A DNA stretch of 32,000 bases from Dickeya dadantii NCPPB 898 (GTDB lineage Bacteria > Pseudomonadota > Gammaproteobacteria > Enterobacterales > Enterobacteriaceae), in assembly GCF_000406145.1 (NCBI RefSeq), contig NZ_CM001976.1, forward strand, positions 1,525,315 to 1,557,314, written 5' to 3'. Both the position numbers and the translations under genes were made by a program. Below are positions 1-31,645 of this stretch, piece by piece (position 1 is the stretch's first letter; each line of letters opens with the position of its first letter). The notes beneath the pieces are model-generated. The model was not told the origin of the DNA and ran no database searches. It saw nothing but the letters and a program-made list of their open reading frames with translations.

Positions 1-1307
1 AATGACCAAAATCTTGAAAAATAGCACTAAGGCAACGGTGCCATGTCCTTATATCAATGCTGGCAACATCAATCCCGTTCCAGGTAATACGACCGGATGT
101 GGGGTGGTACAAACGGCAGAGCAGCTTAATCAGTGTTGATTTACCTGCGCCATTTTCACCAACAATAGAAAGATGGTCACCAGCATGGATCGTTAGATTA
201 ATATTGCTGAGAACGTTGTGGCCGTTTTCATAAGAAAAGGAAACATTTTCAAACTTGATTTCATTTAGAGGAGGTATCTCAGAGAGGGGGTTGCTGTTCT
301 CCTGCGCAACGCTTTCAAGTTCTCGCAGTCGAGCAAAGAAACTAAAACAGACGCCGATATTAGCAAAGGAATACACCATCCACTGGCAAGATAAACCAAA
401 GAAAGAAATTGATTGTATGGTGCCCAGTAACCCTCCGACAGAAATTTTGCCTGCCTGAAGGTATTCAACAAACCAGTACATAACACCCAGGATAGATGCC
501 AGATATAAAAGATTCCATGGCTGGGGTCTGAGTAATTGTTTGCGTCTGACCTGATTTAGTTCATTTTCCAGCTCTTCGAATGCCTGCGTGTGTTTGGTGA
601 AAAAAAATGATGCTGAACGGAAAATTCTGACCTCTTTAGCTAGCTTCACATCAAGTAGAACAGCCAGATAATACCTTATCAGGCGAGCAGCGGTACCTTT
701 TCCCAGCAGAGCCCGAAAAATATCGATTTGTGAAAGCGCAACAGTAAAAGTGATCGGGATAAGCGGCAGAAGAAATGCCAGAGGAAACCACCAGACAACT
801 GAAGCCAGTACCAGAGACAAAGACAACAGCGTTAGTATGCCGCGAAATATATCAACAAGATTAACCAGAAGGTTCAGCGGACGGTGAGCAGCTTCTCTTG
901 AAAGAACCTCAAGATTATCGTGTATGTCCGGTTTCTCGATAATTTTCAGGTCTTCAATGCGGCAGGCTGCCTCCATAATAGTTCGTTGCGTCAGATAGGT
1001 GGCATGCTGATTCAGTATGCTTTGTAGAGTACTGATAATGGGAGCCAGCACGACCGGGGAAGACAAATGTCAGTGCCCAGAATACTGCCACGGTCATCAG
1101 ACCTGAATGATCCGGGCTACTGATGATATTTCCGAGCCGGATGCTTGCCATCACACTCATGGTAGGCAATAACCCCTGCAGGGCAATGAGGATGATAAAC
1201 AGCGTGGATAGCCATGGTGATCTCCTGAATAGCAATGAAAGCGAATAGGTCACCAGATTCAGTTTTTCTTTTACCTTCTGCATCAGAAAAGCTCCATTGT
1301 CAGGCAT
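1..1307 (-). pseudogene. ABC exporter with fused permease and ATP-binding domains (type I exporter, MsbA/MdlB-like); reading frame interrupted; 3' end lies beyond window start
   Basis: The minus-strand frame covering 1-1069 is open to the window edge. It reads ...PVVLAPIISTLQSILNQ...VRIFRSASFFFTKH...FENVSFSYENGHNVLSNINLTIHAGDHLSIVGENGAGKSTLIKLLCRLYHPTSGRITWNG (Walker A GENGAGKST). The hydrophobic N-terminus (track ORF 954-1307, ...LFIILIALQGLLP...AVFWALTFVFPG) is in another frame. Removing one base of the G4 run 1056-1059 would join them as ...ALTFVFPVVLAPIIS.... The probable start is ATG 1283 (TGATG overlap with the upstream stop) or 1307. Confidence 0.7.
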
Positions 1308-2137
1308 TTCCCGTTCGGGAAAATGACAAATTCATCAAAATGTCGGGGAGTATTCAGAATTAGCTCCATCGCATCCCTGGTTTCCGTTCTGTAGAGGGAG
1401 GATATCATTTTTACACGGTATGTCTGGTTACCCATTTTTTTGCACGCATGCCGTACAGAGTGTGTTGATAGTGAATGCCCATCTGGCGTTGCCAGAAATG
1501 TCATGTTTTCAGAAAACACGCCGTATGATGTGATATCGATGCTTCCATGAAATTTATTTCCGAGAGTCTGACAGAGCGAAGGGTAATGGAGCCATGAAGT
1601 GTGCGTTGCATGAAAGTTGTGGCAGATGACAAAAATTAATTCATAACCAAGCTGGATAGCTAACCCGATCTTCTCTGCCATAGCGGTCTCACGCTGTTCC
1701 GGCGTTGCTCCAGTCATACTTAATGTACTTTGTCGATCAAACTCCAGCAAACTGATCAACAGACGCTGCTCAGCAAGAGGAACTAAGCGAATACTTTTAA
1801 TATAATTTTCATGAAGTGTTGTGGATAAAGGTAAATCAATTCCCGCAATAACGCATGTTGCAGGTAAAGCACGGAGGAAAGTTGCAAACTCCTCAGAACG
1901 CATCCACCAGTACGCCGACGATGTAAGGTACGACATGTCCCCGGTATTTATTTTTCTAAAGCGTCTGAGTGCAAACACAATCAGGTCTATAGTCGGACAT
2001 TCGACAAGAACTATGCTACGTAACTCCCTTCGGAGCTTATGTATAAAGGCATTCCGAAACGCCCATGACTCGTCTGAACCATGGCTGTTCTGACCAATAA
2101 AATAAATATGCTTTTTAGCCTGCTTTGTATACAACAT
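1283..2137 (-). CDS. Erythromycin esterase (EreA/EreB)-like hydrolase, ChaN/TraB/TIKI superfamily
   Basis: 284-aa ORF with three motifs in the family-typical order: FIGQNSHGSDE (GExxHGxxE-like), RETAMAEKI (RDxxMAEN-like) and VICHNFHAT (AHNxH-like). Its start overlaps the upstream gene by 23 nt and its stop overlaps the ABC start. The family call rests on remembered motifs, not on an HMM run. Confidence 0.6.
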   Translation of the reverse strand: MLYTKQAKKHIYFIGQNSHGSDESWAFRNAFIHKLRRELRSIVLVECPTIDLIVFALRRFRKINTGDMSYLTSSAYWWMRSEEFATFLRALPATCVIAGIDLPLSTTLHENYIKSIRLVPLAEQRLLISLLEFDRQSTLSMTGATPEQRETAMAEKIGLAIQLGYELIFVICHNFHATHTSWLHYPSLCQTLGNKFHGSIDITSYGVFSENMTFLATPDGHSLSTHSVRHACKKMGNQTYRVKMISSLYRTETRDAMELILNTPRHFDEFVIFPNGKCLTMELF

Positions 2138-3641
2138 TCATACTCCGCGCTATAAGGTGATGTTGTCTTAATAAATACCGTTCATCACGAGAAAAATAGC
2201 TGTCAATCTGTTCAAGAGGGGTAGTAGGGAAGAAATCAGGGAATTCGTTTTTCTCTCCATCAAATAAACTGCGTGAATTAATAAAAAGATGAAACAGAGG
2301 AATGTCATAGTTTGTAAGGCAGGATACTTCATATAATATAAGACTCTGAAACTTGGGGTGTGAACCGGGGTAGAGTAAAAATTCATCAATTAACGCTGGT
2401 AGCTTTTCTTTGATATTTATGCTTGTCTCTGGGTGAATTATTTTGTTAATGATAAGTAGATAATAAGCTGTTGTGCGAACGAGGTAACGTGGTTTAATTT
2501 CTGAGTGGTTTTTCAGGAGGGAAATTATTCTCGCATGGTTTTTTTTTAATTTGAGAAACGTGTCGGTATATCCCTCTGTTACATCAGAAATATGCTTCTT
2601 AGCGTTCACCGGAAGACCGTGGTAGTGTGGGAAATTTTGTGTCCGTTTGGCAAATCCTCGCTCATATCGAACCTGAATATTTTCAGTCGCATCATGGATG
2701 GCGTGAGGATAGGTAAAAGACTGAAATATATTGGTGACAGCGGTAAGCGCTGATGTATGCCCTAGTCCATTCTTGACAACATCCGGGCTCTGAAGCAATC
2801 CGCTTTGATATATAGAACGTTCAAATTCCGGGGCGTCATCAAAAAAATACTGGAAGCTGGTTTCGGGATCTATCAGCCATACAGTGCCAGCATCTACAAT
2901 GAAGTTATCAAAATGACAGTCATTGATATTCAGAAGATCGGCTAGAGCTAAAATATTACCGTATCTTCTGTAAACTTTAGCTGCATCCACGCTGGAATCC
3001 AGGCCCCTGTTTTCGACAAATTCCTGCCACAAATGTGTTTTAAAACTAAGTGTCACAGGGCAGACATTAGCTAACCCGATAATGTTGCAGATCTCATTAA
3101 GTACATTTTCAATGCCAGAATCTCTGGGTTTGTAAATAAGCTTGAAGCTTCCGAGGGCTAGTATCACTGGTTGTTGTCCATTGTCATGCCGGTCACCAGC
3201 AGCTAAAGACAGCTTTCCCGGAGTTGAAAAAAGTGGTGGGCAATTATAAATATCAATAAGTAACTTATGTTCCTCGATCAAGCGGATAAGAAAATTATTT
3301 ATGTTTGCGATAGTGGTATCACAGATATGTTCTGCCAGTTGACTAATATATTGATTGTTGTTTCTTAGCCCTGGTAGCCAGGAATTATCATCATTCTTGA
3401 AATAGGAAGTATATCTATCTGAATGTGAATCGGGTTGTGTTTTCAGCCATTCATCGAAATTAACAACAAAATCAGGAAGGTGGATTTGATCAAGTGATTC
3501 AGAGATACTCAATGATACATCTGTAAAATCGAGGTGATGCAGACCATAATCAGTCAGCATCTGCTGCATCTTTTGGTTAAAATTTCTTAGATATGGGAAA
3601 TAGAGGTAAGCACGATATGGTTCTGACAGTATGTAGCGCAT
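2115..3641 (-). CDS. Stand-alone LanM N-terminal (DUF4135, lipid-kinase-like dehydratase domain) homologue without a LanC cyclase domain
   Basis: 508-aa ORF with an AAGGA Shine-Dalgarno 9 nt upstream of ATG 3641. It has the ordered signature blocks AAGDRHDNGQ (GDxHxxG), LIYKPRD (YKPR), NDCHFDNFIV (DxHxEN) and WLIDPETSF (IDxE) known from class II lanthipeptide synthetase dehydratase domains. The protein ends after this domain. Confidence 0.7.
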   Translation of the reverse strand: MRYILSEPYRAYLYFPYLRNFNQKMQQMLTDYGLHHLDFTDVSLSISESLDQIHLPDFVVNFDEWLKTQPDSHSDRYTSYFKNDDNSWLPGLRNNNQYISQLAEHICDTTIANINNFLIRLIEEHKLLIDIYNCPPLFSTPGKLSLAAGDRHDNGQQPVILALGSFKLIYKPRDSGIENVLNEICNIIGLANVCPVTLSFKTHLWQEFVENRGLDSSVDAAKVYRRYGNILALADLLNINDCHFDNFIVDAGTVWLIDPETSFQYFFDDAPEFERSIYQSGLLQSPDVVKNGLGHTSALTAVTNIFQSFTYPHAIHDATENIQVRYERGFAKRTQNFPHYHGLPVNAKKHISDVTEGYTDTFLKLKKNHARIISLLKNHSEIKPRYLVRTTAYYLLIINKIIHPETSINIKEKLPALIDEFLLYPGSHPKFQSLILYEVSCLTNYDIPLFHLFINSRSLFDGEKNEFPDFFPTTPLEQIDSYFSRDERYLLRQHHLIARSMNVVYKAG

Positions 3642-3661
3642 ACATCTTATCCTTTCTTCCT

Positions 3662-3692
3662 AAAAAAGGGCAGCCGATGGCCGCCCTTTTTT
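3662..3692 (-). terminator. Rho-independent hairpin between the peptide gene and the DUF4135 gene (probable partial terminator/attenuator)
   Basis: The plus strand reads AAAAAAGGGCAGCCGATGGCCGCCCTTTTTT. On the minus transcript this gives GGGCGGCC-AUC-GGCUGCCC, 8 bp including one G-U pair, followed by U6. On the plus strand the same position is an A-C mismatch, so the structure is better in the operon direction. Confidence 0.6.
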
Positions 3693-3693
3693 A

Positions 3694-3873
3694 TCAATTA
3701 AAGAATTCTTCAGTAATTTCCTGAAGCTCTTTGATTAGTACTTCTTCCGAGGAGATATTAATACCACCACCTCCGCAGTCGCAGGTACCACTGGCGCAGT
3801 CAACACCACTATTAGCCATATAACCGCGAATATCGGAGATCTTACTCGGTGCTACTTCGATAATACGTTCCAT
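3694..3873 (-). CDS. 59-aa Cys/Gly-rich peptide, candidate RiPP precursor (below the 60-aa ORF-track cutoff)
   Basis: My own translation of the minus strand gives MERIIEVAPSKISDIRGYMANSGVDCASGTCDCGGGGINISSEEVLIKELQEITEEFFN. ATG 3873 is preceded by GAGGTAACAA (good SD). It is the first gene of the operon and is followed by a hairpin terminator. Confidence 0.65.
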   Translation of the reverse strand: MERIIEVAPSKISDIRGYMANSGVDCASGTCDCGGGGINISSEEVLIKELQEITEEFFN

Positions 3874-4697
3874 TTGTTACCTCAGATTTTGTCAATTACT
3901 ATGTAAGTGGATAAAAATGTCTTCGCGAGATACAACTTTTGTGTACACGGAGAAAGCATAAAATGGGAATAATAGATTAAAATGTGATCTGTCTCTGATA
4001 AATCATCTGATGGTAATTTGATTTTTTATTTTCCAGTGATTTGAGTTTTTTTGTTCTTATGTATAGTTTCTTTTTCTATGATCTCTAATGTTTTTTCATT
4101 ATGTGCAAACAATATGCATTTTTACTATTCATGTTTTGTTTCATATTTTACCCCTATTGAGGGTGTGAAATTATGGTAATTAAGTGAAAGATTAAAAATC
4201 TAATGAAGGGACATTAAGCGATTATTCATTGCACGGACAGTAACATATATCAGATTTGGGAATTTTTTCTTTAGCACAAGTAAATAAATTTACTTATGGT
4301 AATAATTTATTTTGATGAAAGTTATTTATTGGGAGCGATAAAATATCGAGCAGATTGATTTATGTAGCGGACATTCTGGATGTACTAATGTCTATGATAA
4401 ACTACAGTTTGTTCAATGTGTTCGGAAAGAATTATACAGAAATGCTCGATCTTTAACTGAATATTAATGTTTGTTTAATAAAATTATAATGAATTTTTAG
4501 TTCGCAATAATGTTTGATTCATTCTCAGGGAAAGACCGTTAATTGGCATAATTACTGTATCTGGTTTCAAGTCAGCTTCACGGCTGTTCGGTGTTCACTT
4601 TACTTCAGCCATGGCGTATTGCATTGCTAACTAAAAGAATAGCACTTGTACTGACGGGGACTACTTCAAGGTTATCCATTAATCAATCTACTGAAGA

Positions 4698-5044
4698 CTA
4701 AGGCAACATGATGGCTATTTTCTCTACTCTGGGTATTAACGAAGGAGACATCCGCTTACCGGTCACGACACCTGCCAAATTCAATGCAGCGCTGTTTTCA
4801 CCCGCCCCTTCTGTAATGCGTAACGCATGATGGTGCACAGGTGCTGCCGGGTACGGGACGCCACTCCCAGCAAGCCTTTTTTCTCTATGCCTTTCAGCAG
4901 GTCGATGAAATGGCGGGGTTTCAGCTCCGTGACGGGCTGGTGCCCGATGACCGGAAAGAGATGGTTGTTCGTGCTGGCAAGCAGACGAACGGCATGGTTC
5001 TCTGGCCATGTCCGGTTGCGCTTATGCCAGTCCACACTAACATG
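4698..5044 (-). pseudogene. P4-type (tyrosine) integrase fragment, truncated at both ends and frameshifted
   Basis: Track ORF 4781-5035 (DWHKRNRTWPENHAVRLL...LFPVIGHQPVTELKPRHFIDLLKGIEKKGLLGVASRTRQHLCTIMRYALQKG) matches the N-terminal SAM-like/arm region of CP4-57/P4 integrases. The continuation (ALNLAGVVTGKRMSPSL...) is in another frame (ORF 4698-5009). The catalytic domain is absent. Confidence 0.75.
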
Positions 5045-5078
5045 TCAGCAACACTGATATAAGACCGCAAATTTAATT

Positions 5079-5507
5079 TTAAGTTTTTTGGCGAGAAAAT
5101 CTTATCTTGACGGGGCTTCCATTCAAAGTCAGTGAGCGTACCTCACCAGGTATCATGACGCCAGCCCAGTTAAACGTCTTCTCATTGCGCACAGCCTGAA
5201 AACGAACAGTATATTCCTGATTTTCCTTCTTAACCTGGAGCGTAAGTAACTCCGATTTTCCATTGCTCTGTGCATAGTGAGTTTGTGGGACAACAAGGCC
5301 TATTCCCTGAGGTGGGAACGGTTTTCCGTTGATTTCAACCAGCAACCAGAAAGATTCATTTGGGTCGCCACACTCCTTTACTGTCTGCTTAGGTTCTCCA
5401 AATGCTTCGAAAGTTACTGTTGGGCATAGCTCTGGAAACTCACTGGCGGCATTGCTAGCGTTTGAAATGAAAAATGCAAGAGCGGGGATGAGTATCTGAA
5501 TTTTCAT
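5079..5507 (-). CDS. Hypothetical small secreted protein (N-terminal signal peptide)
   Basis: 142-aa ORF. Its N-terminus MKIQILIPALAFFISNASNA/ASE has an n-h-c signal-peptide layout with an AxA-like cleavage site. I recognise no family. Confidence 0.55.
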   Translation of the reverse strand: MKIQILIPALAFFISNASNAASEFPELCPTVTFEAFGEPKQTVKECGDPNESFWLLVEINGKPFPPQGIGLVVPQTHYAQSNGKSELLTLQVKKENQEYTVRFQAVRNEKTFNWAGVMIPGEVRSLTLNGSPVKIRFSRQKT

Positions 5508-5685
5508 AGGAAGCCATGTTTTGTAAGGTTATTAAATCTAATCTGCAACAAACAAAAAAAACTTAATAGGAAAATTAATATGGCAACACAGAACTGGGAG
5601 GCCATCGAGACAGCATACTGGGATAGGTATGATACTTTTGCATGAAAGTGTCAGACTCGATTTTTACGCAATGTATCGAAAAAGA

Positions 5686-5721
5686 TATTCTGAAATGGTT
5701 TTCTGAAAGTATTCTGAAATG
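5686..5721. repeat. Three tandem 12-bp repeats (TATTCTGAAATG / GTTTTCTGAAAG / TATTCTGAAATG)
   Basis: Read directly: the units are 5686-5697, 5698-5709 and 5710-5721. Units 1 and 3 are identical and unit 2 matches at 9/12. The array lies 34 bp beyond the tRNA-Asn 3' end, on the island side. Confidence 0.85.
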
Positions 5722-5754
5722 CAAAGGGCTGCATACGCAACCCCTTGATAAATT

Positions 5755-5830
5755 TGGCTCCTCTGACTGGACTCGAACCAGTGACATACGGATTAACAGT
5801 CCGCCGTTCTACCGACTGAACTACAGAGGA
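5755..5830 (-). tRNA. asnT-like: tRNA-Asn (anticodon GUU)
   Basis: The reverse complement reads TCCTCTGTAGTTCAGTCGGTAGAACGGCGGACTGTTAATCCGTATGTCACTGGTTCGAGTCCAGTCAGAGGAGCCA. It is 76 nt with a cloverleaf, a CT-GTT-AA anticodon loop and an encoded CCA, and matches the enterobacterial tRNA-Asn as I remember it. Confidence 0.97.
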
Positions 5831-12338: not shown

Positions 12339-13628
12339 TCAGGCGTCCTGTCTGGCTTGTTGCAGCGCCACTTCCGCCTCGGGCTCTTCCTCGTCGTCGG
12401 TGATGTCTTTTTCCAGACTGGCCACCACGGCGGTAGAAATACTGTTGCCGATAACGTTGGTTGCGGTGCGGCCCATATCCAGGAACTGGTCGATACCCAG
12501 AATCAGCAGGATACCGGCTTCCGGCAGGCTGAACATCGGCAGGGTGGCGGCCACTACCACCACGGAGGCGCGCGCGACGCCGGCCATGCCTTTACTGGTG
12601 ATCATCAGCGTCAGCAGGATCAGGATCTGCTGGGTCAGGCTCAGGTCAATGTTGTACGCCTGCGCGATGAACAGGATAGCGAACGACTGGTACATCATGG
12701 AGCCGTCCAGGTTGAAGGAGTAACCCAGCGGCAGCACAAAGCTGGTGATCTTCTTCGGTACGCCGAAACGCGTGAGGGCATCCATGGTTTTCGGGTAGGC
12801 CGACTCGCTGCTGGCGGTGGCGAATGCCAGCATGGTGGGTTCGCGGATCAGACGGGCCAGCACCGCGATGGAACGGCCGAGGAATGCGTAGCCCACCAGG
12901 AACAGCACCGCCCACAGCAGCGCCAGACCGAGATAGAACTCGCCGATCAGCTTGCCGAAGTCATAGATCAGGCCCAGACCCTGAGTGGTGATGGCGGAAG
13001 CAATCGCTGCGAACACGGCGATCGGCGCCAGCGCCATCACGTAGTCGGTCACGCGGAACATCACTTTGGCCAGCTCTTCGATGGTGGACAGAATGAAGTT
13101 GGCCTGCTTGTTATGGTGCTTAACGTAAGCCAGCGCCGAGCCGAAGAACAGCGAGAACACCAGAATCTGCAGGATTTCGTTGTTGGCCATCGCTTCCACG
13201 ATGCTTTTCGGGAAGATATGGCTGATGAAGTTTTTCAGCGTAAAACCATCGGTATTCAGACCGGTGGTGACATGGTTGACCGGAGCGACCAGATTCATGC
13301 CGACGCCCGGCTGGAAGAAGTTCGCCAGCATCATGCCGATCAACAGCGACAGGAAAGACGCGGTAACGAACCAGGTCATAGCTTTCAGGCCGACGCGGCC
13401 CACGGCAGAAGAGTTACCCATGCTGGCCAAACCGGAGACCAGAGTGGCGAACACCAGCGGCGCGATGATCATCTTGATCAGACGCAGGAAGATGTCGGTA
13501 ACCATATTAAAGTACGACGCCACCTCTTTGGCACGGGCGCCGTCCAGATAGTTGTGGCATGCCCAGCCAATCAGAATACCGAGCACGATCGCCAGCATTA
13601 TCTGTATTAATAACTTCTGCCTTTGCAT
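12339..13628 (-). CDS. Dicarboxylate/amino acid:cation symporter (DAACS; DctA/GltP-like)
   Basis: The track ORF is 441 aa from 13664. The likely start is ATG 13628 (MQRQKLLIQIML...) with a GAGG SD. Family hallmarks are LIKMIIAPLVF, ATASSESAYP, PLGYSFNLDGS and ILGIDQFLDMGRTATNVIGN. Confidence 0.88.
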   Translation of the reverse strand: MQRQKLLIQIMLAIVLGILIGWACHNYLDGARAKEVASYFNMVTDIFLRLIKMIIAPLVFATLVSGLASMGNSSAVGRVGLKAMTWFVTASFLSLLIGMMLANFFQPGVGMNLVAPVNHVTTGLNTDGFTLKNFISHIFPKSIVEAMANNEILQILVFSLFFGSALAYVKHHNKQANFILSTIEELAKVMFRVTDYVMALAPIAVFAAIASAITTQGLGLIYDFGKLIGEFYLGLALLWAVLFLVGYAFLGRSIAVLARLIREPTMLAFATASSESAYPKTMDALTRFGVPKKITSFVLPLGYSFNLDGSMMYQSFAILFIAQAYNIDLSLTQQILILLTLMITSKGMAGVARASVVVVAATLPMFSLPEAGILLILGIDQFLDMGRTATNVIGNSISTAVVASLEKDITDDEEEPEAEVALQQARQDA

Positions 13629-14542
13629 ATAAACCTCATGTTGATGAATGTATTCAGACAACACACAGTGTTATTGCAGCGTAGCGGTCAGCGATGTCGT
13701 GAGACATACGCAGGCCGATACCCTGATTTGTTTGTGGGGTGTTGTGTCTGCCGCGCGAAATACTACAACGAAATCGGATTTTTGCCCTTTTTTTCTGCTA
13801 ATAAAATGAAATGCATCACTGAATGAGGTCAAAAATGCGTTATTTCCCTGCTGATTATGGGTAAAAACCAGACATATAGTAGGTATATATGTTTTTATAA
13901 TTTCATATTTATCAATTGGTTGTGTGTTTCACGTGCTAAGGCGGCGGGCGATTTTTGTGTTAATCATAACATTTTCTTATATCTTAATCGGAGTCAGCAA
14001 TAAAACAAATAATCGCTGCTGAACTATTTTTATCTGCACACGGTTTTATTATTGATTGATGACATGAGTAATTAATAAACAGTAATTACCCTTCTGTTCA
14101 TGAAAATATAATCTGGCGTAATACCGGCAAGCTGGTATGCAATTGAATAAAAACAACAGTAATTTTAATGACCTGCTTTAATTGAATCGGACGGGAGCAT
14201 TAATGTTATTTTTTTCTTTATAGATGTAATTTAAATGTTGCGTTTTGGTTTTTGTGTGAATAAAAATTAAGCAATTCCGCGTAATGGCTCAGCATCACGA
14301 CAATATTTCCTGAGCCAGTATCGGTAATCGCTTCTGTATAAAATAAACTCAAAATAGTAAACGGTTCTTATTATTATCTGTCGCGGCAGGCGATAATTGT
14401 TCATCTGGTGACCGCTTGTCGCCGGCGTGCTCCGGTTTAGCACGATTCAGATCAAGCTATTGGTGAGGCGACGTGTCATTTCCTCAGGGAAGCTCTTACA
14501 CTATTTCCCCACACTATCTATGGAAATTGGATTACGGTGGTT

Positions 14543-20007: not shown

Positions 20008-20036
20008 GTTACTCTGTTCATTGACAAGGAGTGCCA

Positions 20037-20294
20037 ATGCCTGAGATTGACAGACTGGCGGGGCTGATTTTCCATTTGTACTTTTACGACGATGAGCGGC
20101 ATCACTTACCGCATGTCCATGTCTGCTACGGCAACCATGAACTTATCATCAATATTCGTACCGGAACCGAGATCGAAGGATATCTGCCGAATAACAAGCG
20201 CAAGCTGGCGCTTGCGCATATCAGGGCCCACCGGCAGCAACTGCTGAGTATGTGGGAACGGGCGGTAGTGAGGAGAAATCCGGGAAAACTGTGA
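20037..20294 (+). CDS. DUF4160 family protein
   Basis: ~85 aa. ATG 20037 is preceded by AAGGAG; the track uses GTG 20031. It has the family-typical block YFYDDERHHLPHVHVCYG. Confidence 0.72.
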   Translation: MPEIDRLAGLIFHLYFYDDERHHLPHVHVCYGNHELIINIRTGTEIEGYLPNNKRKLALAHIRAHRQQLLSMWERAVVRRNPGKL

Positions 20295-20301
20295 GGCATT
20301 T

Positions 20302-20790
20302 ATGCATAAGATCGTGGAAGTTGACGTCATTGGCGATTTTTCGTTGCGCCTGACCTATGAAGATGGTCTGGTTTGCGACATCAATCTTTATCTCTATGCC
20401 CCCAGCCCGGTGTTTTCGAACGCCAGCCAGTTTATCAAATTTGGCCTGCTGCCGGACGGTTCGCTGGAATGGCTGCCGGATATTAGGATTTCCGCGTCGG
20501 AATTGCGGAAAAAAGGGGAGTATGTCAGCCACACGCTCGCGGTGCGAGAAAGGAACTTCGCTGATGTTATCTCTCGCGCCTTCTATGATGCCGTGATTGA
20601 AAACCGGCCGGAAATTCTGCAAGCGGCGTTGAAAACCGCGGTGGAAAAACATGGCAACAGCACCGTAGCCAAAGAGGCGGGGGCGAAAAGCCGCACCAGC
20701 CTGTATAAGTCGCTGAATAAGAATACCAATGTCAGCCTGGCGACGGTGGTCAGCCTGGCGCACACCGTGCTGCAACTGGAAGAAAAGTAG
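20302..20790 (+). CDS. Fusion protein: N-terminal DUF2442 domain plus a C-terminal HigA-type 'addiction module antidote' HTH
   Basis: 162 aa with a GAGG SD. The N-terminal half (KIVEVDVIGDFSLRLTYEDGLVCDINL...) is DUF2442-like. The C-terminal half (...ENRPEILQAALKTAVEKHGNSTVAKEAGAKSRTSLYKSLNKNTNVSLATVVSLAHTV) resembles antidote-type HTH proteins. Confidence 0.65.
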   Translation: MHKIVEVDVIGDFSLRLTYEDGLVCDINLYLYAPSPVFSNASQFIKFGLLPDGSLEWLPDIRISASELRKKGEYVSHTLAVRERNFADVISRAFYDAVIENRPEILQAALKTAVEKHGNSTVAKEAGAKSRTSLYKSLNKNTNVSLATVVSLAHTVLQLEEK

Positions 20791-24852: not shown

Positions 24853-26524
24853 GGTACATCTCCTGACGGGAAGGGGTTAACGATGAAGCAGGCGCGGTGT
24901 CCGGCGAGGTAGAACCTGACATGATAGTACCCAGCGAGGTAGTACCCAGTATGGTAGTACCCACTGTTGTAGTAGTACGGGCGCTCAGCGACGGCCAGCC
25001 CAGACTCGGCGGGGTTGGTTCGCCGGCATGGTTGCCGTTTAAAACGATGGCGGTGGCCTGCTCCAGCAAATGGATGACCGGCTGTGGAATACGAGTGCCC
25101 ATCACCAGCATCAATACCAGCAGAATCAGCATCGGCGCGGTGGTCAGCCAACCCAGCTCGCCCTTGCTGACCGCTTCCGGCTGGCTGCCCAGCACGCTGG
25201 TGGCGATCATGCGCACCAGCCCGGCCAATACCACGGTCAGCAGCACCAGCAACACCAGCACCAGCGGTAGATGACCGGCGTGGATGCCGGCGGTAACCGT
25301 CATGAATTCGCTCAGAAATACGTTGAACGGCGGCATACCGCCGAGCGCCAGCGCGCCGCCGGCCAGCAGCGCGCCCGTCACCGGCGCGACGCGCAGGATG
25401 CCTTTCACCGCGTCCATATCACGAGTGCCGTACTTCAACAGCACGTTGCCGGAGCCGCAGAACAGCAGGGTTTTCGCCAGACTGTGGTTCAGTGTATGCA
25501 GCAGCGCGGCCAGAATGCCGAGCGGGCCGCCGATGCCGAGCGCCACGGCGATCAGCCCCATGTTTTCCACGCTGGAGTAGGCCAGCAGGCGTTTCATGTC
25601 ACGCTGCACCAGAATCAGGAACGCGGCGACGGCCACCGACAGCAGGCCGAACACCAACAACAGCCGTTGCGGAAATTCCGGGCCGATGGCGGCGCTGATC
25701 AGGATGGTGTAGCGCACGATCACCAGCAGCGCGCAGTTGAGCAGCACGGCGGAGAGCAGGGCGCTGGTGGGACTGGGCGCCTCGCTGTGGGCGTCCGGCA
25801 GCCAGGCGTGCATCGGGAACAGGCCGGTTTTGGTGCCAAACCCGATCAAAATAAAGATGAACGCCAGATGCATCAGCGTGCTGTCCAGTTCGCCGGCGTG
25901 TTGCAGCACCTCGGTCCAGAAAATGGCGTTGCCCGGCTCCGCCATCACGTTGGCGGCGTTGGCGTATACCAGCACGGTGCCATACAGGCCGAAAGCGACG
26001 CCGACGGTGCAGATGATGATGTATTTCCACGCCGCTTCCAGCGACGAACGCTGGCCGTACAGGCCCACCAGAAACGCCGAACTGAGCGTGGTGGCTTCAA
26101 TCGCCGCCCACATCAGGATCAGGTTGTTGCTGGTGATCACCAACAACATAGTGAACAGAAACAGGTGGAAGAAGCCGTAGTAGTGGCACAGCGTGGTGAC
26201 GCTGATTTCGCCGCCGTCCACCTCGTGACGCATATACCCCATCGAGTAGAGGCCGGTGAGAAAGCCAATCACCCCGAGAATCGCCAGAAACAGTGCGCTC
26301 AGGCTGTCGAGGTGCAGCCAGCGGTGGGCCGCCAGCAGTTCGCCCTGTTGGTAGACCGTCCACACCGCCAGCAACGCCACCAGCAGCAGCGCGCTGATGC
26401 CGAGCAGATGAATCAGGCTCACCAGCGCGCGCGCCGCCGTGCCGGTAAAGCGGCAGGCGAACGCCAGCAGGGCGGCGACAAACGGCACGCCCAGCAGCAG
26501 GGAAAAAAGATCCAAAGTCGTCAT
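24845..26524 (-). CDS. hyfF: Hydrogenase-4 membrane subunit F (NuoN/Mrp antiporter-like) with an unusual C-terminal tail
   Basis: The true start is ATG 26524 ([15 protein letters not shown]...). The track's 638-aa version has a spurious N-terminal extension across hyfE. The product is 559 aa. Confidence 0.9.
24906..24980. repeat. Five imperfect tandem 15-bp repeats (core GGTAGTACCCA) inside the hyfF 3' end
   Basis: The units start at 24906, 24921, 24936, 24951 and 24966: gaggtagaacctgac / atgatagtacccagc / gaggtagtacccagt / atggtagtacccact / gttgtagtagtacgg. On the minus strand they encode ...[23 protein letters not shown].... Confidence 0.75.
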
Positions 26525-26529
26525 GGTGA

Positions 26530-27180
26530 TTATCCTTTCAGCGCGGTCAGTTGCTGAACATCCAGCGTGTGCAGCGTGCGGTGGATTTTGCGCGCCATCA
26601 GCGCCATCACGATGACGGCGAAGATGGCGTCGGTGGCGATGCCGATCTCCACCAGCTCCGGCGCGCGGTAGGCCAGCAGCGCCAGCGTCAGGTGGGCGCC
26701 GTTTTCCATCAGGCAGTAACCGAACACCTGTTTGAGGATGTTGCGCTGGCTGACGATGCACAGCAGGCCGATCAGGAAGTGGCCGAGCGACACTGCCAGC
26801 ACCGGTTTCAGGTCGTTAACCATCGGCAGTTTCACCGGCGCGACGGCAAAGTAGCTCAGCAGCACAATCAGGGTGGCGATCAATATCAGAGTCGCGGTGC
26901 CGATGACGCCGCCGTCGGCTTTCGGGTCAGCCAGCCGGCAGAAGGCGAAGCTCATAATGGCGGGCACCATCACTACCTTGGTGATGAAGGCGGTGAGCGA
27001 CCACAGATACAGCTCGTGGGAGCCAAGCAACCCGCCCAGCGCCACAAAAATCAGCACCAGCACCAGCGACTGCAACGCGTACAGCGCGGCGGACACCGTG
27101 GGTTTTCTGGCGGCGATCACCAACAGCGAGGTGATGATCAGCAGACCAGCCAGATTGTTGACAAGAAGAGAACCAGTCAT
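26530..27180 (-). CDS. hyfE: Hydrogenase-4 membrane subunit E
   Basis: 216-aa polytopic membrane ORF, the same length as E. coli HyfE as I recall, at the expected operon position. Confidence 0.88.
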
Positions 27181-27189
27181 GAGAGTTCC

Positions 27190-28629
27190 TTATTTCAGCC
27201 AGAGTGCGGCGATAACGCTGGAGCACAGCGACATCACTATCAGCACCAGCAGCACCAAATTCATCGACGCCGGCACCGCCGTAGCCGACGCCACCTCCTC
27301 GGACGGCTCGCCCGGCACGGTGCGGCCAAACCAGTAGATGAACCAGGCGAAGCTGGCGACCGATTCCACCAGCGCGATGATCAGCAGCGGCAACAGCCAC
27401 CAGACGTCGCGCGACAACGCGAACCCGGCGGCGAACAGCGGGAACTTACTGAAAAAGCCGTTGAACGGCGGCACGCCGGTGATAGCCAGCGCCGCGACGC
27501 AGAAACCGACGCCCAGCAGCGGCAGGCGCTTCATCATGCCGCGCAGCTGCGGCAGCATGCGGGTGCCGCAGCTGTAGCTGAGCGCGCCGGCCACCAGGAA
27601 GAACAGGCTTTTGGCGTAAGCGTGGTTGAAGATGTAGGCCATACCGGCATCGAAAGCCATGCGCGAACCGAAGATGGACAGCGACAGCGCCAGAAAGATG
27701 TAGGCGAGCTGGGTGATGGTGGAGTAGGCCAGCAGCCGCTTCATGTCTTTTTGCGGCAGGTACATCAGGAAGCCGTACACCAGCGTAATGGTCGCCATGA
27801 TGACGCCGACCACGCCGATGATGTGCGGCACTTCGACGGCGGACAGAATGGCGCGGGCAAAAATATACACACCGACTTTCACCATCGAGGCGGCGTGCAG
27901 GTAGGCGCTCACCGGCGTCGGCGCTTCCATCGCATCCGGCAGCCAGACATGCAGCGGCAACTGGGCTGATTTGCCCCAGGCCGCGAACAGGATGCCGCCG
28001 AACACGATGATTTTGCTGCTATCGTCCAACTGTGCAATGGCGCTGAGCGCGAAGGTGCCGGTGGTGGCGAACAGCCAGGCCGCCGCCAGATACAGGCCGA
28101 CGGAGGCGATATGCGTCACTAACAGCGCTTTGAGCGCCGAGCGCAGCGATTTCGGTTTCTGGTAGTAGCCGATCAACGCCCAGGAACAGCCGCCGGTGAT
28201 TTCAAAGAACAGCAACTGGCCGAGGATGGTGGATGACAGCGTCAGCCCGGCCATCGCGCCGATAAATACCAGCAGGAAGGCGTAGTAGCGATTGCTGCCG
28301 TCGTGCGGGTGCTCGCGGTTGCCCAGCGTCAGGTAGCCGCAGGAGTAAAGGCTGACCAGAAAACCGAGCGACACCACCGCAAAGCCGATCAACAGGCTGA
28401 TACGGTCGAACAGGAAACCGAACAGATCGGCCTGACCGTAACGATAAAGGGTGACGACCTGGTCGGTTTTGCCGCCGTCAAGATAGCGCCAGGCCAATAG
28501 CGCCATGCCGAGCGTCGCCAGCAGGGCGAACAGCGTGCACAACCCTTTGGCGAGGCGCTGCGGTGCGAAAGCTATCCACAGCGCGCCGAGAAACGGCAGC
28601 AACAGGGTGGCAAGAGCAATATTCTCCAT
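27190..28629 (-). CDS. hyfD: Hydrogenase-4 membrane subunit D (NuoM/antiporter-like)
   Basis: 479-aa membrane ORF with antiporter-like motifs (WLPDAMEAPTPVSAYLHAA...[10 protein letters not shown]), at the expected operon position. Confidence 0.9.
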   Translation of the reverse strand: MENIALATLLLPFLGALWIAFAPQRLAKGLCTLFALLATLGMALLAWRYLDGGKTDQVVTLYRYGQADLFGFLFDRISLLIGFAVVSLGFLVSLYSCGYLTLGNREHPHDGSNRYYAFLLVFIGAMAGLTLSSTILGQLLFFEITGGCSWALIGYYQKPKSLRSALKALLVTHIASVGLYLAAAWLFATTGTFALSAIAQLDDSSKIIVFGGILFAAWGKSAQLPLHVWLPDAMEAPTPVSAYLHAASMVKVGVYIFARAILSAVEVPHIIGVVGVIMATITLVYGFLMYLPQKDMKRLLAYSTITQLAYIFLALSLSIFGSRMAFDAGMAYIFNHAYAKSLFFLVAGALSYSCGTRMLPQLRGMMKRLPLLGVGFCVAALAITGVPPFNGFFSKFPLFAAGFALSRDVWWLLPLLIIALVESVASFAWFIYWFGRTVPGEPSEEVASATAVPASMNLVLLVLIVMSLCSSVIAALWLK

Positions 28630-28645
28630 GATGGATGCCGACTCC

Positions 28646-29593
28646 TTATAGTCCGGTCAGGTAGAAAACGAATGCCAGCGCCGCCACGCCGAAGCCGAGC
28701 CAGGTCACCCGGTCGGTCAGCAGAAAGCGCCCGCGCGCCAGGCTGTTTTCGATAACGGCGGCGATGACGAACACCACCACCAGCTTGATGATCAGCGCCA
28801 GCGATCCCCACAACAGGCTGACCGCCGTGAGCGTTTCGGCCTTGCCGAACGGCACGAAAATCGACAGGAACAGCGTGGCGACCACCACCTGTTTGAGGCT
28901 GATGCCCCATTTCACCAGCGCCAGCCCGGCGCCGGCGTATTCGGTCAGCGGGCCTTCCTGCAACTCCTGTTCCGCTTCCGCCACGTCAAACGGGATTTTT
29001 CCCATCTCGATAAAGGTGGCGAAGGCGCAGGCCAGCAGCGCCAGCGCGGTGGCGGTGGGTGACGCCCAGTGACCGCTCGCCAGTTTGACGCTGATATTGC
29101 CGATGTTGGTGGAGCCGGCGACCAGCGCCACCACCAGCAACGCCAGCATCAGAATCGGTTCCACCAGGATGCCGAGCGTCAGTTCGCGGCTGGCGCCGAT
29201 GCCGGCAAAGGTGCTGCCGGAATCCAGGCCGGATAAGGAGAAGAAAAAGCGAAAGACCGCAAACAGGTACAGCAGGGTGATGATGTCGCCCGCCGCGCCG
29301 AACGGGGAGCCGTCGGTCACGGCCGGCAGCGTCATCGCCACCAGCAGCATGGTGCCGAGCAGGATGAACGGCATCAGGCGAAACACGCCGCCGCTGTGCT
29401 CGGGCGCCACTTCCTGACGGCGCAGCAGTTTGACGATGTCACGATAATCCTGCAGCACGCCCGGCCCCTGGCGGGAGTGCATTTTGGCGCGGATCACGCG
29501 CGACAGGCCGGACAGCAGCGGTGCCGCCGCCATCAGCAGGACGGCCTGCAATAGCGCGCCCAGCAGCGGAAAAACGAGTGAAGCGTAAGTCAT
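28646..29593 (-). CDS. hyfC: Hydrogenase-4 membrane subunit C (NuoH/HycD-like)
   Basis: 315-aa membrane ORF with RVIRAKMHSRQGPG...FDVAEAEQELQEGP (NuoH-like), at the expected operon position. Confidence 0.92.
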   Translation of the reverse strand: MTYASLVFPLLGALLQAVLLMAAAPLLSGLSRVIRAKMHSRQGPGVLQDYRDIVKLLRRQEVAPEHSGGVFRLMPFILLGTMLLVAMTLPAVTDGSPFGAAGDIITLLYLFAVFRFFFSLSGLDSGSTFAGIGASRELTLGILVEPILMLALLVVALVAGSTNIGNISVKLASGHWASPTATALALLACAFATFIEMGKIPFDVAEAEQELQEGPLTEYAGAGLALVKWGISLKQVVVATLFLSIFVPFGKAETLTAVSLLWGSLALIIKLVVVFVIAAVIENSLARGRFLLTDRVTWLGFGVAALAFVFYLTGL

Positions 29594-29605
29594 GTTCCGG
29601 TCTCC

Positions 29606-31645
29606 TTAAGCCAGAGTGGCCAGTAGCAGGGCAACCAGCGCCGCCACCACATACAGGCAGTACACCCGGAAATCGCCGTGCTGAATCCATTGCACCGCGC
29701 GGCTGATGTGCTGCACGCCGCTGACCACCGGCATCACCACGTGGTCGTCCCATACCGGTTCGACGCGCGCCGCCGCCTGCGTGGTCTTTTCCAGCGCCTG
29801 CTGCATCGCGGGCGCCGGGTCGAGGGTTTTGCGCACGCGGTACAACGGCGCGAACATCACCCGCAGCGGCTGGGTAAAGCTGCCGGCCGAGGCCGACATG
29901 GCGGATTCATAGCCGTAGCCGCAGGCCCAGGGCGTGCCTTTGTGACGAAAACCGAGACGCGGGCCGCGCAGCAGGCTGTAGAGCATCAGCGGCAGCAACG
30001 GCAGCGCCAGCAGCAGGATGAAAATCAGCGGCGTATTAAGGCGGGTTTGCAGGTGGTCGCCGGGGAAGACGCCCAGTCCCGCGGCCATCATGACTTCCGG
30101 GGTGTGCGCCAGGTCCGCCGCGATACGGGTCATCACCGGTACCACCACGCTGGCGCCGACGCCGAGCAGCACGCACAGCAACGCCAGCAGTAACATGGCG
30201 AGCGTCATCGGCCAGGGGACTTCGCGGGCGTGAGCGGCTTTCTCGCTACGTGGCGCGCCGCAGAAACTGATGCCGTACACCTTGACGAAACACATCGCCG
30301 CCAGCGCGCCGGTGATCGCCAGCATCACGATGGCGATCGGCGCGGCCAGCCGCAGGCCGATGCTGCCGTCATGGCTGAGGGTGAACAGCGACTGGTAGGT
30401 AAACCATTCGCTGACGAAACCGTTGAGCGGCGGCAGGGCGGAGATCGCCATACACCCGACCAGAAACGCCAGCGCGGTACGCGGCATCAGCCGTGACAGT
30501 CCGCCCATTTTTTCCATGTCTTTGGTGTGGACGCGGTAGATCACCGCGCCGGCGCCGAGAAACAGCAACCCCTTGAACACCGCGTGGTTGAGCAGGTGAT
30601 ACAGCCCGCCCAGCAGGCCGAGCAGCGCCAGCAGCGGATGATGGGTGGCGATGCCGATCATGCCGACGCCGACCCCCATCAGAATGATGCCGATGTTCTC
30701 CACCGTGTGGTACGCCAGCAGGCGTTTGATGTCGTGCTCGGCCAGCGCGTACAGCACCCCCAGCACCGACGACACCGCGCCGAACGCCAGCACCACCACG
30801 CCCCACCAGGTTTCGGTGGCGCCCAGCAAATCAACACCGACTTTGATGATGCCGAATACGCCGATCTTCACCATCACGCCCGACATCAGCGCCGAGGCGT
30901 GCGACGGCGCGGCCGGGTGCGCGCGGGGCAGCCAGCCGTGCAACGGCAGCATCCCGGCTTTGGCGCCGAAGCCGAAGAACGCCAGCAGGAACACCACCGA
31001 GGCCTGCGGTGCCGACAACCCGGCGTGGCGGAAATCGACGAAGTCGAGGCTGCTGCTGTGGCGATAGAGCAGGAAGAAGGCAATCATGATCAGCACCGAA
31101 CCGGCATGGGCGATCAGGAAATACAGCAGCCCGGCACCGACCGCCTCTTCATCCTGATCGGCGATGACCAGGAAGTAGGAGCTGAGCGACATCACTTCGA
31201 ACAACACAATGAAGTAGAAGGCGTTGTCCACCACCACCAGCGCCACCATAGAGGCGACAAACAGGTTCATGAAGAACCCCATCGCCCAGGCGCCGCGCCC
31301 GCGGTACTCCTCCAGATAAGCCAGTGAATACAGGGCGGATACCGCCACCAGCAGCGAAATCACCAGCGTCATGAACGCGGCCAGGGTATCGAAGCGCAGC
31401 GTCAGGTGTGCGAAGGCGTCAAACGGCCCGTCGAACACGGCGGTCAGCACGCCGCCGCCGAGCAGGACGGGAGCCGCCGCCAGCGCACCGGCGCAGCCGC
31501 CCGCCAGCGCGCACAGCCCGCTCAGGCGAATCGCCAGCGATTCCCGGCGGCACAGACATAACGAAAGCAGCGCGCCGGCCAGATACAGCGCTAGCGACAG
31601 GCCCAGCCATTGCAGTGGCGTGAACAATTGCAGTGGCGTCATCAT
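29606..31645 (-). CDS. hyfB: Hydrogenase-4 membrane subunit B (NuoL/HycC-like)
   Basis: 679 aa. WLPRAHPAAPSHASALMSGVMVKIG...DIKRLLAYHTVENIG is collinear with E. coli HyfB. Confidence 0.92.
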   Translation of the reverse strand: MMTPLQLFTPLQWLGLSLALYLAGALLSLCLCRRESLAIRLSGLCALAGGCAGALAAAPVLLGGGVLTAVFDGPFDAFAHLTLRFDTLAAFMTLVISLLVAVSALYSLAYLEEYRGRGAWAMGFFMNLFVASMVALVVVDNAFYFIVLFEVMSLSSYFLVIADQDEEAVGAGLLYFLIAHAGSVLIMIAFFLLYRHSSSLDFVDFRHAGLSAPQASVVFLLAFFGFGAKAGMLPLHGWLPRAHPAAPSHASALMSGVMVKIGVFGIIKVGVDLLGATETWWGVVVLAFGAVSSVLGVLYALAEHDIKRLLAYHTVENIGIILMGVGVGMIGIATHHPLLALLGLLGGLYHLLNHAVFKGLLFLGAGAVIYRVHTKDMEKMGGLSRLMPRTALAFLVGCMAISALPPLNGFVSEWFTYQSLFTLSHDGSIGLRLAAPIAIVMLAITGALAAMCFVKVYGISFCGAPRSEKAAHAREVPWPMTLAMLLLALLCVLLGVGASVVVPVMTRIAADLAHTPEVMMAAGLGVFPGDHLQTRLNTPLIFILLLALPLLPLMLYSLLRGPRLGFRHKGTPWACGYGYESAMSASAGSFTQPLRVMFAPLYRVRKTLDPAPAMQQALEKTTQAAARVEPVWDDHVVMPVVSGVQHISRAVQWIQHGDFRVYCLYVVAALVALLLATLA

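Follow-up and report, generated by a model that had tools for sequence, protein, structure and literature searches.

A candidate microcin-like RiPP cassette built around a standalone LanM-type dehydratase in Dickeya and other Enterobacterales

Introduction

What could a LanM-like enzyme make when no cyclase accompanies it? This question is raised by one end of a 32,000-nucleotide (nt) stretch of the Dickeya dadantii NCPPB 898 genome (contig NZ_CM001976.1, positions 1,525,315 to 1,557,314; the whole stretch is hereafter called the window). There, four genes encode a 59-amino-acid (aa) peptide, a 508-aa protein with a DUF4135 domain, a 284-aa protein and an ATP-binding cassette (ABC) exporter. 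An earlier reading of the letters, made without database searches (the sequence-only reading), had taken these genes for a candidate operon making a peptide that is ribosomally synthesized and then post-translationally modified (RiPP). We followed this up computationally and consider it fairly probable that the genes form a horizontally mobile, microcin-like RiPP pathway of an undescribed kind. Our analyses support as new a RiPP pathway whose basis is a dehydratase of the LanM type, joined by a conserved family of precursors and a recruited enzyme of the erythromycin-esterase (Ere)/TIKI fold.

Gene content and order of the cassette

The cassette comprises four genes in ~4.4 kb. Its features in the window, with the evidence for each in brackets, are:

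3880..3883, minus strand: Shine-Dalgarno sequence GAGG of the peptide gene (sequence; conserved across loci)
3694..3873, minus strand: putative precursor-peptide gene, 59 aa (listing of open reading frames, ORFs, and orthologous ORFs)
3662..3692, minus strand: intrinsic-terminator-like hairpin between the precursor and enzyme genes (sequence and folding)
2115..3641, minus strand: predicted standalone LanM-type dehydratase, DUF4135, 508 aa, without a cyclase domain (Pfam, Foldseek and residue alignment)
1283..2137, minus strand: predicted Ere/TIKI-fold hydrolase, 284 aa, cytoplasmic, cassette-specific (AlphaFold 2 model and Foldseek)
1..1283, minus strand: 5′ part of the ABC exporter gene, frameshifted at ~1052 and cut by the window edge (three-frame translation and alignment with Dickeya solani)

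As the sequence-only reading had described, four co-directional and tightly coupled minus-strand genes are present, and the ORF listing gave them at these coordinates. The 508-aa and 284-aa genes share the 23 nt at 2115–2137, as noted before, and the 284-aa and ABC genes meet at 1283 in a 1-nt overlap (TGATG), not the 3-nt overlap (1283–1285) reported earlier. Peptide, DUF4135 protein, ~280-aa protein and ABC exporter followed in the same order in every close Enterobacterales locus that we read, which came from Dickeya, Erwinia, Pantoea, Scandinavium, Dryocola, Buttiauxella and metagenomes. A scan of genome contigs gave three loci and a scan of metagenomes five close ones, and most of the genomic contexts were reached by exact-protein look-ups.

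A conserved putative precursor peptide

The 59-aa peptide has the sequence MERIIEVAPSKISDIRGYMANSGVDCASGTCDCGGGGINISSEEVLIKELQEITEEFFN, with an isoelectric point (pI) of 4.1 and a charge of −7.5. Its gene was absent from the ORF track used by the sequence-only reading, which had proposed it as a missed gene and had allowed that it might lack conserved counterparts. Such counterparts were found throughout: an orthologous ORF of 55–67 aa lies directly upstream of the DUF4135 gene in 20 of 20 close loci. Eleven distinct sequences were compared. Over the first 32 codons, synonymous differences (pS 0.76) far exceeded nonsynonymous ones (pN 0.15); coding identity was 72%, compared with 32% in the 96 nt upstream; and a Shine-Dalgarno sequence of the GAGG/GGAG type stood 6–8 nt upstream of the ATG in all eleven. 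Judged by these values, the peptide gene is real and under purifying selection.

The enterobacterial peptides follow the consensus MERI[IV]E[VI]xxx[KR][IM]xxIRGYMANSxxDCxSGTC[DE], then a variable spacer, Gly-rich or of other composition, and an acidic helix ending in F-[FY]-x. More distant standalone DUF4135 genes, from Verrucomicrobiota and other metagenomes, are also preceded by an ORF (64–71 aa) wherever the contig extends far enough, which the Verrucomicrobiota contig does not. Most of these distant loci have an ABC exporter; no Ere-like gene and no LanC gene was found in them. Their peptides contain KCCASGTCAS, SGCCASGTRT, QPCGTGTCDN or SSGCCAGGTL, and in them the C-x-x-G-T motif is kept, as is a Gly where the leader ends. 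When the enterobacterial set was aligned with three of the four distant peptides (the first three motifs just given), only M1, G17, C26, G29 and T30 were invariant; I4, E6, S22, S28 and C31 were nearly so. Because no other columns are invariant, the universal feature of the substrate, as read from this alignment, is a Cys four residues upstream of the Thr in a Gly-Thr pair. The Cys26/Thr30 pair fits dehydration of Thr30 and its capture by Cys26, without proving either, and it is the only hint in the peptide of the (methyl)lanthionine thioether rings by which lanthipeptides are defined.

The peptide probably consists of a leader at about residues 1–18 that includes G17, a Cys/Ser/Thr core with C26, G29 and T30, and an acidic C-terminal helix. 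Within the leader, the stretch E-[VL]-x4-[IL]-x4-G resembles what we take to be the class II leader motif ending in a double-glycine-type site, and the residues at the site equivalent to the GG/GA leader cleavage site are G-Y. A short, conserved, enzyme-adjacent ORF under purifying selection is what a RiPP precursor gene should look like, and the leader and core boundaries given here are putative assignments within it.

Between the stop codon of the peptide gene and the start of the DUF4135 gene lies a hairpin, A6-GGGCGGCC-ATC-GGCTGCCC-T6. The sequence-only reading had placed a hairpin between 3641 and 3694, and we located it, GC-rich and with a T-run, at 3662–3692. It was not listed by a simple terminator scan and was revealed by folding, in which the 78 nt running from the stop codon of the peptide gene into the start of the DUF4135 gene reached −28.8 kcal/mol. 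In 12 of 12 loci folded, a stable GC hairpin occurred directly 3′ of the stop codon; its sequence differed each time, and in most loci a T-run lay on its 3′ side. The hairpin is probably a leaky attenuator that sets a high ratio of precursor to enzyme.

A predicted LanM-type dehydratase that stops at 508 residues

The 508-aa protein matched Pfam DUF4135 with an E-value of 3.7e-70 over residues 100–451. The sequence-only reading had recognised a LanM dehydratase domain ending at 508 aa and had considered that a significant DUF4135 match might fail to appear; the domain assignment stands. The LanM model TIGR03897 was matched only at positions 5–519 of its 932, with 205.2 bits, below the cutoff of 304. 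A profile of the family aligned to CylM residues 141–597 and to LicM2. In this profile alignment, D150, H152, K171, D241, H243, N246, D258, E260, R385 and T391 of the 508-aa protein correspond to CylM D252, H254, K274, D347, H349, N352, D364, E366, R506 and T512. The CylM-equivalent residues are invariant in 19 enterobacterial proteins and kept in 51–53 of 53 other standalone proteins at each position. We take R506 and T512 of CylM to be residues of phosphate elimination.

The AlphaFold 2 model of the protein had a predicted local distance difference test (pLDDT) score of 83. Its whole-length Foldseek matches were LicM2 (TMq 0.74) and CylM (TMq 0.71), and the other matches were distant PI3K-like kinases. 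The protein had earlier been labelled both a LanM-like kinase domain and a dehydratase domain. The DUF4135 homology behind the first label holds, and "dehydratase" is the better name because all phosphate-elimination residues are kept. We therefore predict from the conserved residues that the protein is a dehydratase and not a mere kinase, and dehydration is well supported by sequence and structure prediction. A kinase-only enzyme is disfavoured, with R385 and T391 both invariant.

Residues 293–333 of the 508-aa protein form a near-invariant stretch (GxGHTSALTAxTNxFxSxxxPxAxxD...) for which the AlphaFold model gave a pLDDT of only 32–44. This stretch may be a substrate-induced loop.

Absence of a cyclase

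The sequence-only reading had found no LanC-like cyclase motifs in the operon. Searches by tblastn with the C-terminal LanC-like domains of 68 LanMs agreed, giving no match in the 32-kb window or in any standalone locus; only the six control LanM loci matched, at 1e-18 to 1e-88. PF05147 was likewise missing from the Pfam tables of the neighbourhoods read.

A protein of this length could also be the remnant of an ordinary class II lanthipeptide cluster whose lanM was truncated by mutation, a possibility that the sequence-only reading had named as well. NCBI names the orthologues "type 2 lanthipeptide synthetase LanM", and parts of the cassette do decay in some strains, as would suit such a fragment. 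The family itself argues otherwise. Homologues in 22 clusters keep a length of 497–527 aa at identities as low as 39%, and their stop codon is overlapped by the next gene downstream. They come from Dickeya, Pectobacterium, Erwinia, Pantoea, Citrobacter, Serratia, Enterobacter, Buttiauxella, Salmonella and metagenomes. An exhaustive profile search of 1.8 billion representatives returned 7,599 relatives; after family members and fragments, nearly all of the next ~45 were 500–590 aa long, and full-length LanMs appeared only from ~177 bits on. In a neighbour-joining tree of 154 sequences, the 19 enterobacterial proteins were nested in a clade of 72 proteins, all shorter than 700 aa and none a LanM. 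No LanC-like remnant was found in any frame. On the conserved length, the all-short clade and the missing LanC-like match we rejected the broken cluster, which is extremely unlikely. By its sequence relationships, the 508-aa protein belongs to a conserved cyclase-less lineage of ~500-aa proteins.

One metagenomic locus (L021, 4398–7465) has a 692-aa DUF4135 ORF that overlaps a separate 370-aa ORF matching LanC-like domains; this is either a frameshift or a LanM that is split naturally.

A cassette-specific protein of the Ere/TIKI fold

The 284-aa protein had no match in Pfam, NCBIfam or PADLOC and no signal peptide. All of its 23 database relatives are unannotated and come from cassette-carrying genera (Dickeya, Pectobacterium, Salmonella, Pantoea, Citrobacter, Enterobacter, Buttiauxella) or from metagenomes. 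Sub-threshold matches to Erythro_esteras occurred in 7 of 18 family members (best E 2e-4) and to ChaN in 2 of 18; the homologue in locus L011 scored 19.4 bits against PF05139, below the cutoff of 26.4 bits. Searches of the family against PDB sequences gave chance matches only, and the relationship to Ere was revealed only by the fold search. The AlphaFold model was confident (pLDDT 90.6; predicted template modelling score, pTM, 0.90), and its only strong fold matches in the PDB were BcR135/136 and EreC (Foldseek E 9e-12 to 8e-9, probability 1.00, TMq 0.53–0.67); HopBA1 came next at 1e-3. The model thus assigns the protein to the Ere/TIKI fold, which has a core of parallel beta-sheet. The sequence-only reading had placed it in the erythromycin-esterase family from its motifs: fold (E 9e-12) and motif order bear this out, and the window protein itself has no Pfam Erythro_esteras match.

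Nine residues are invariant in the family: H19, E46, C47, R149, E150, C172, H173, H176 and C189. H19 (in GQNSHG), E46, R149-E150 and H173-N-F-H176 have the order and spacing of EreC H50, E78, R261 and H289, with the interval H19–E46 matching H50–E78 and R149–H176 matching R261–H289; this is an equivalence of motif spacing and not of residue-level structural alignment. These four EreC residues are the described catalytic set (PMC7979712). Q16 takes the place of the first Glu of the 2His/2Glu set. The superfamily contains true endopeptidases, namely Tiki and the metal-independent RRSP with its 2His/2Glu site (PMC6254334).

The hydrolase presumably acts on a peptide rather than a macrolide, because its gene is part of an operon for peptide maturation. 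With a C39 domain missing from the exporter, the simplest role for the hydrolase would be removal of the leader, the tail or both.

The invariant C47, C172 and C189 stand beside the predicted catalytic residues (E46-C47; C172-H173-N-F-H176), a placement not expected from the Ere motif. These cysteines may point to a metal or redox site, and a cyclase-like role is possible.

The ABC exporter and accessory genes

Three-frame translation showed that the exporter gene breaks frame in the window: frame 0 stops at 954, and the rest lies in another frame. The intact orthologue of 593 aa is a half-transporter with fused transmembrane and nucleotide-binding domains (ABC_tran E 6e-35) and gave no Peptidase_C39 match. 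The sequence-only reading had described an exporter without a C39 domain, which agrees with this orthologue, and had overlooked the frameshift at ~1052. The best NCBIfam matches of the exporter were exporter families, all below cutoff. Its PDB matches, mostly generic nucleotide-binding domains (P-glycoprotein and similar), were uninformative on specificity.

Three lineages (Erwinia oleae, Pantoea and Scandinavium) have a gene for a DsbA paralogue that is translationally coupled to the ABC gene and overlaps its end. The paralogue has a signal peptide and a CPHC motif, which points to periplasmic disulfide formation on the exported product. Cysteine number in the peptide showed no link to this gene, and peptides with three Cys occur both with and without a DsbA paralogue. 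The two most divergent cassettes have a ~272-aa nucleotidyltransferase-like protein instead of the DsbA paralogue.

Genomic island and mobile contexts

Upstream of the cassette, the window contains:

3874..4697, minus strand: AT-rich (~30% GC) non-coding upstream region, presumed promoter/regulatory region of the operon (composition and sequence)
4698..5035, minus strand: phage-type integrase remnant, central domain only (Pfam Phage_int_M E 1.9e-18, ORF 4781–5035)
5755..5830, minus strand: tRNA-Asn (GTT), likely integration site of the island (ARAGORN)

GC content was 33–45% over positions 1–5000, compared with ~60–65% in most of the flanking chromosome, in line with the AT-rich island described by the sequence-only reading. 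Because of this low GC content, the tRNA-Asn and the integrase remnant, we place the operon on a tRNA-associated genomic island. At the position orthologous to the remnant, D. solani has an Arm-DNA-bind_3 plus Phage_int_M fragment. The window region is 96.9% identical in DNA to the D. solani locus, and for the window's 284-aa protein a Dickeya dadantii protein of 100% identity was found.

Between the integrase remnant and the tRNA-Asn lies a 142-aa ORF (5079–5507, minus strand) with an N-terminal signal-peptide-like sequence and no Pfam match. The window segment at ~5035–5748 has no counterpart in the D. solani locus.

Besides the tRNA-Asn island of Dickeya, the mobile contexts of the cassette include a 152-kb Pantoea contig with IncFII repA and TraI, a Buttiauxella locus where the cassette adjoins TraC, and the inside of a tyrosine-recombinase element that interrupts a Y-family polymerase gene. 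Positions 1–4700 of the window had no megablast match in 5,426 complete Escherichia coli genomes or in PLSDB plasmids. The DUF4135 protein had no tblastn match in PLSDB at E ≤ 1e-20, and the plasmid-like Pantoea locus is therefore outside that collection.

The most divergent cassette (loci L011 and L012) is in a ~12-kb element between two fragments of a Y-family polymerase (IMS) gene (74–505 and 12490–13479). The element encodes a tyrosine recombinase of 425 aa and, after it, two large ORFs without annotation (576 and 679 aa), and it looks like an integrative element targeting the IMS gene. Two D. solani assemblies (L005 and L004) have identical cassettes and different neighbours upstream of 7769, LrgA/LrgB and a two-component system in one and lacZ and a tRNA in the other; the difference suggests that the border of the island was rearranged or was assembled differently.

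Proposed pathway and other explanations

In the pathway that we favour, the 59-aa peptide would be the substrate, and its N-terminal ~18 residues (E-V-x-x-x-K-I-x-x-I-R-G-Y, with the invariant Gly17) would serve as a class-II-like leader. The dehydratase would phosphorylate hydroxyls of the core with ATP and then eliminate phosphate, giving dehydrobutyrine and dehydroalanine. Its primary target would be the invariant Thr30, probably together with Ser28 and Ser22. Cys26, four residues upstream of Thr30, would probably add to the dehydro residue and form a small thioether ring, which would close without LanC, spontaneously or with one of the two enzymes as a template. The cytoplasmic Ere/TIKI-fold hydrolase would most likely replace the C39 peptidase and trim the leader, the acidic C-terminal tail or both. 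Export of the product would fall to the ABC half-transporter, which would probably also give self-protection, and in some lineages the periplasmic DsbA paralogue of the cassette would oxidise the remaining cysteines. The gene content and its conservation, the intact catalytic residues, the folds and the missing cyclase are what the analysis shows; from these we infer which residues are modified, how the ring forms, what the hydrolase acts on and that the product is antibacterial.

Several observations weigh against this pathway. Dehydration, thioether formation and bioactivity are predictions from the genes. Not every peptide of the wider clade has C31 and Ser28, and the ring pattern therefore cannot be derived from the sequence. 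The hydrolase, matched to EreC by motif spacing, is missing from the wider clade of standalone DUF4135 proteins; it is therefore accessory, and a peptidase, an esterase, a cyclase or an immunity protein would all be possible roles for it. We identified neither an immunity gene dedicated to the cassette nor an outer-membrane component or regulator for it. In several Dickeya strains, moreover, the cassette is decaying. In one D. solani genome (L006, 10359–12139) the ABC gene is split, its two products having 241 and 326 residues, and in other strains of D. dadantii a deletion fused genes 2 and 3 into a 315-aa protein (P0019), in which gene 2 residues 1–191 and gene 3 residues 157–284 are joined at a shared IGLA micro-homology. 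In the window itself, a single extra C at ~1052 frameshifts the exporter relative to the intact 593-aa D. solani gene. This is a pseudogene or a sequencing error; the exporter of this strain is probably defective, and the locus may therefore be inactive here.

The hydrolase also lends itself to a different assignment, as the replacement of LanC. LanC coordinates zinc through Cys-Cys-His ligands, and the Cys plus Cys-His pattern of the 284-aa protein (C47, C172-H173, H176) resembles them, with an invariant Cys beside the predicted catalytic Glu/His that is kept in the most divergent homologues. Such a site could bind metal and activate the thiol for Michael addition, or perform another tailoring step (ester or lactone), and the leader would be left to housekeeping proteases. 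That the wider clade without this gene is also without any peptidase fits this idea, since a dedicated leader peptidase is therefore not obligatory for such systems. However, the wider clade would then need another route to ring closure, and the spatial clustering of the hydrolase cysteines is a surmise from the sequence. Moreover, no cyclase of the Ere/TIKI fold is known, the activities described being ester or peptide hydrolysis and haem binding (PMC7979712, PMC6254334). We regard this assignment as rather unlikely. A larger extension of the favoured pathway would be a new RiPP class spread over several phyla, defined by a cyclase-less dehydratase and a C-x-x-G-T core. In it, the enterobacterial Ere/TIKI Cys/His enzyme would be a non-LanC thioether cyclase or a new leader peptidase, and the product an unseen modified microcin scaffold of plant-pathogenic and enteric Enterobacterales. 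We offer it tentatively, as possible and on balance doubtful.

Other explanations concern what the peptide is for. It might be a secreted, pheromone-like signal or a metal- or redox-active thiol peptide, so that the benefit of the cassette would be non-antagonistic. Its Cys- and Gly-rich core and its strong acidity are unusual for membrane-active bacteriocins, an immunity gene is not evident, and the DsbA paralogues suggest periplasmic thiol chemistry. PrgY/TraB, related proteins of the TIKI family, act on peptide pheromones. However, no receptor or regulator gene was linked in the neighbourhoods read, and a patchy, mobile and often decaying occurrence such as this typifies the islands of bacteriocins and microcins. 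The set of a precursor, two enzymes and an ABC exporter also parallels microcin J25, and we give the signal or thiol peptide only a small chance. It is very unlikely that the cassette is a stress, defence or toxin–antitoxin-like module with the DUF4135 protein as a kinase of some cellular or phage target and the small ORF as a regulator instead of a substrate. Its mobile islands do lie beside integrases and transposases, and the DUF4135 protein is kinase-like, its remaining Foldseek matches being PI3K-type kinases; but none of the three proteins searched had a PADLOC match (E ≤ 1), and phosphate-elimination residues that a plain kinase does not need are strictly conserved. Against such a module also stand the leader-like N-terminus and invariant Cys/Thr core of the small ORF and the exporter that is always linked in the enterobacterial cassette.

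Significance

Lanthipeptide mining by Walker et al. (2020) started from LanC, and in other surveys short DUF4135 proteins are treated as suspect and filtered, for example with a minimum length that limits false positives. A lineage of cyclase-less dehydratases with their own precursors stayed invisible because of this LanC-anchored mining and these length filters. If the proposed pathway is right, dehydro-amino-acid or thioether peptides would be made by a minimal enzyme set, and the erythromycin-esterase/TIKI fold would have its first role in bacterial peptide maturation. Dickeya, Pectobacterium, Erwinia, Pantoea, Salmonella, Enterobacter and Citrobacter, Gram-negative plant-pathogen and enteric genera for which few RiPP antibiotics are known, would gain a new type of modified peptide. 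The system is small and comes from relatives of E. coli, and it is therefore directly testable by heterologous expression.

Other features of the window

At 20031–20790 (plus strand), a patch of lower GC content contains a DUF4160 gene (87 aa, E 3e-18) paired with a gene for an HI1420-like "addiction module antidote" protein (162 aa, E 2e-4). The pair is apparently inserted among hydrogenase-type genes (HycB-like ferredoxin and HycI-like protease, assigned by eye). A ~0.9-kb AT-rich segment (~39% GC) at 13650–14530 is without a convincing ORF; judged by eye only, the gene on one side of it resembles that of a dicarboxylate/amino-acid symporter and the gene on the other that of a sigma-54 activator (727 aa). 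From 25000 to 32000, ~7 kb of high-GC minus-strand genes show a sustained positive AT skew (+0.15 to +0.30) on the plus strand.

Comparison with known systems

Searches of open-access full texts gave no description of a standalone DUF4135 protein with an Ere-like neighbour, which is an absence of evidence; the dehydrazoles came nearest. The gene combination was not found there either, in keeping with the judgement of the sequence-only reading that it fits no described class. The systems below each share part of it.

In fold, the 284-aa protein is like EreA/B/C, BcR135/136 and the TIKI superfamily (Tiki, RRSP, ChaN, HopBA1), with Foldseek E-values of 1e-11 to 1e-9. It has the motif order G-x-x-x-H-G, E, R-E...M-A, H-N-x-H and the same catalytic spacing as EreC (PMC7979712). 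It differs from Ere enzymes in being ~120 aa shorter (they have ~405 aa), in scoring below the Pfam threshold, in having Gln for the first Glu of the 2His/2Glu set and in the invariant Cys residues that flank the catalytic ones.

In gene layout and mobile context only, the cassette is analogous to the enterobacterial, mobile, four-gene system of microcin J25. The mcjABCD genes encode a ~58-aa precursor, two maturation enzymes of the cytoplasm, including a protease, and a ~580-aa ABC half-transporter without C39 that both exports and protects. The enzymes are unrelated, a lasso cyclase and a transglutaminase-like protease there and, as predicted, a LanM-type dehydratase and an Ere/TIKI-fold hydrolase here, so the chemistry of the products must differ. 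NisT of class I, a ~600-aa ABC half-transporter without a peptidase domain, exports the modified precursor, and a separate enzyme, the extracellular subtilisin NisP, removes the leader. The C39-less exporter of the cassette resembles NisT in layout, and the only candidate protease of the cassette is the cytoplasmic Ere/TIKI-fold protein, in contrast to the extracellular NisP.

Dehydrazoles (carnazolamide) offer a precedent for a divergent DUF4135 dehydratase outside canonical lanthipeptide biosynthesis, the LanMbC enzyme CcaM (PMC10676384). CcaM carries a fused class III zinc-free cyclase domain, which it requires for activity, and it acts only on azole-containing cores made by YcaO (PMC10676384). 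Dehydrazole and cassette pathways would share a DUF4135 dehydratase working outside the canonical pathway and a final product without LanC-made rings. They differ in that the cassette has no cyclase domain and that no YcaO, dehydrogenase or radical SAM gene was present in the loci read. By gene content, with neither a fused class III cyclase nor YcaO, the cassette is not a dehydrazole cluster.

The closest functional parallel would be a class II lanthipeptide system, with LanA, a bifunctional LanM (for example CylM or LicM2) and a LanT that has a C39 peptidase. The two have in common a homologous dehydratase domain in which all residues for ATP binding, phosphotransfer and elimination are kept, an N-terminal leader ending in a conserved Gly, a Ser/Thr/Cys core and a linked ABC exporter. 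The cassette differs in having no LanC-like domain or gene, an enzyme of ~500 aa rather than the 900–1100 aa of LanM that scores below the TIGR03897 cutoff, an exporter without C39 and an additional Ere/TIKI-fold hydrolase. Its core occupies the central part of the peptide, with a conserved acidic tail after it. Lacking a cyclase, a C39 transporter and a score above the LanM cutoff, the cassette is not, by its genes, a class II lanthipeptide cluster; it would work most like a class II system stripped to its dehydratase.

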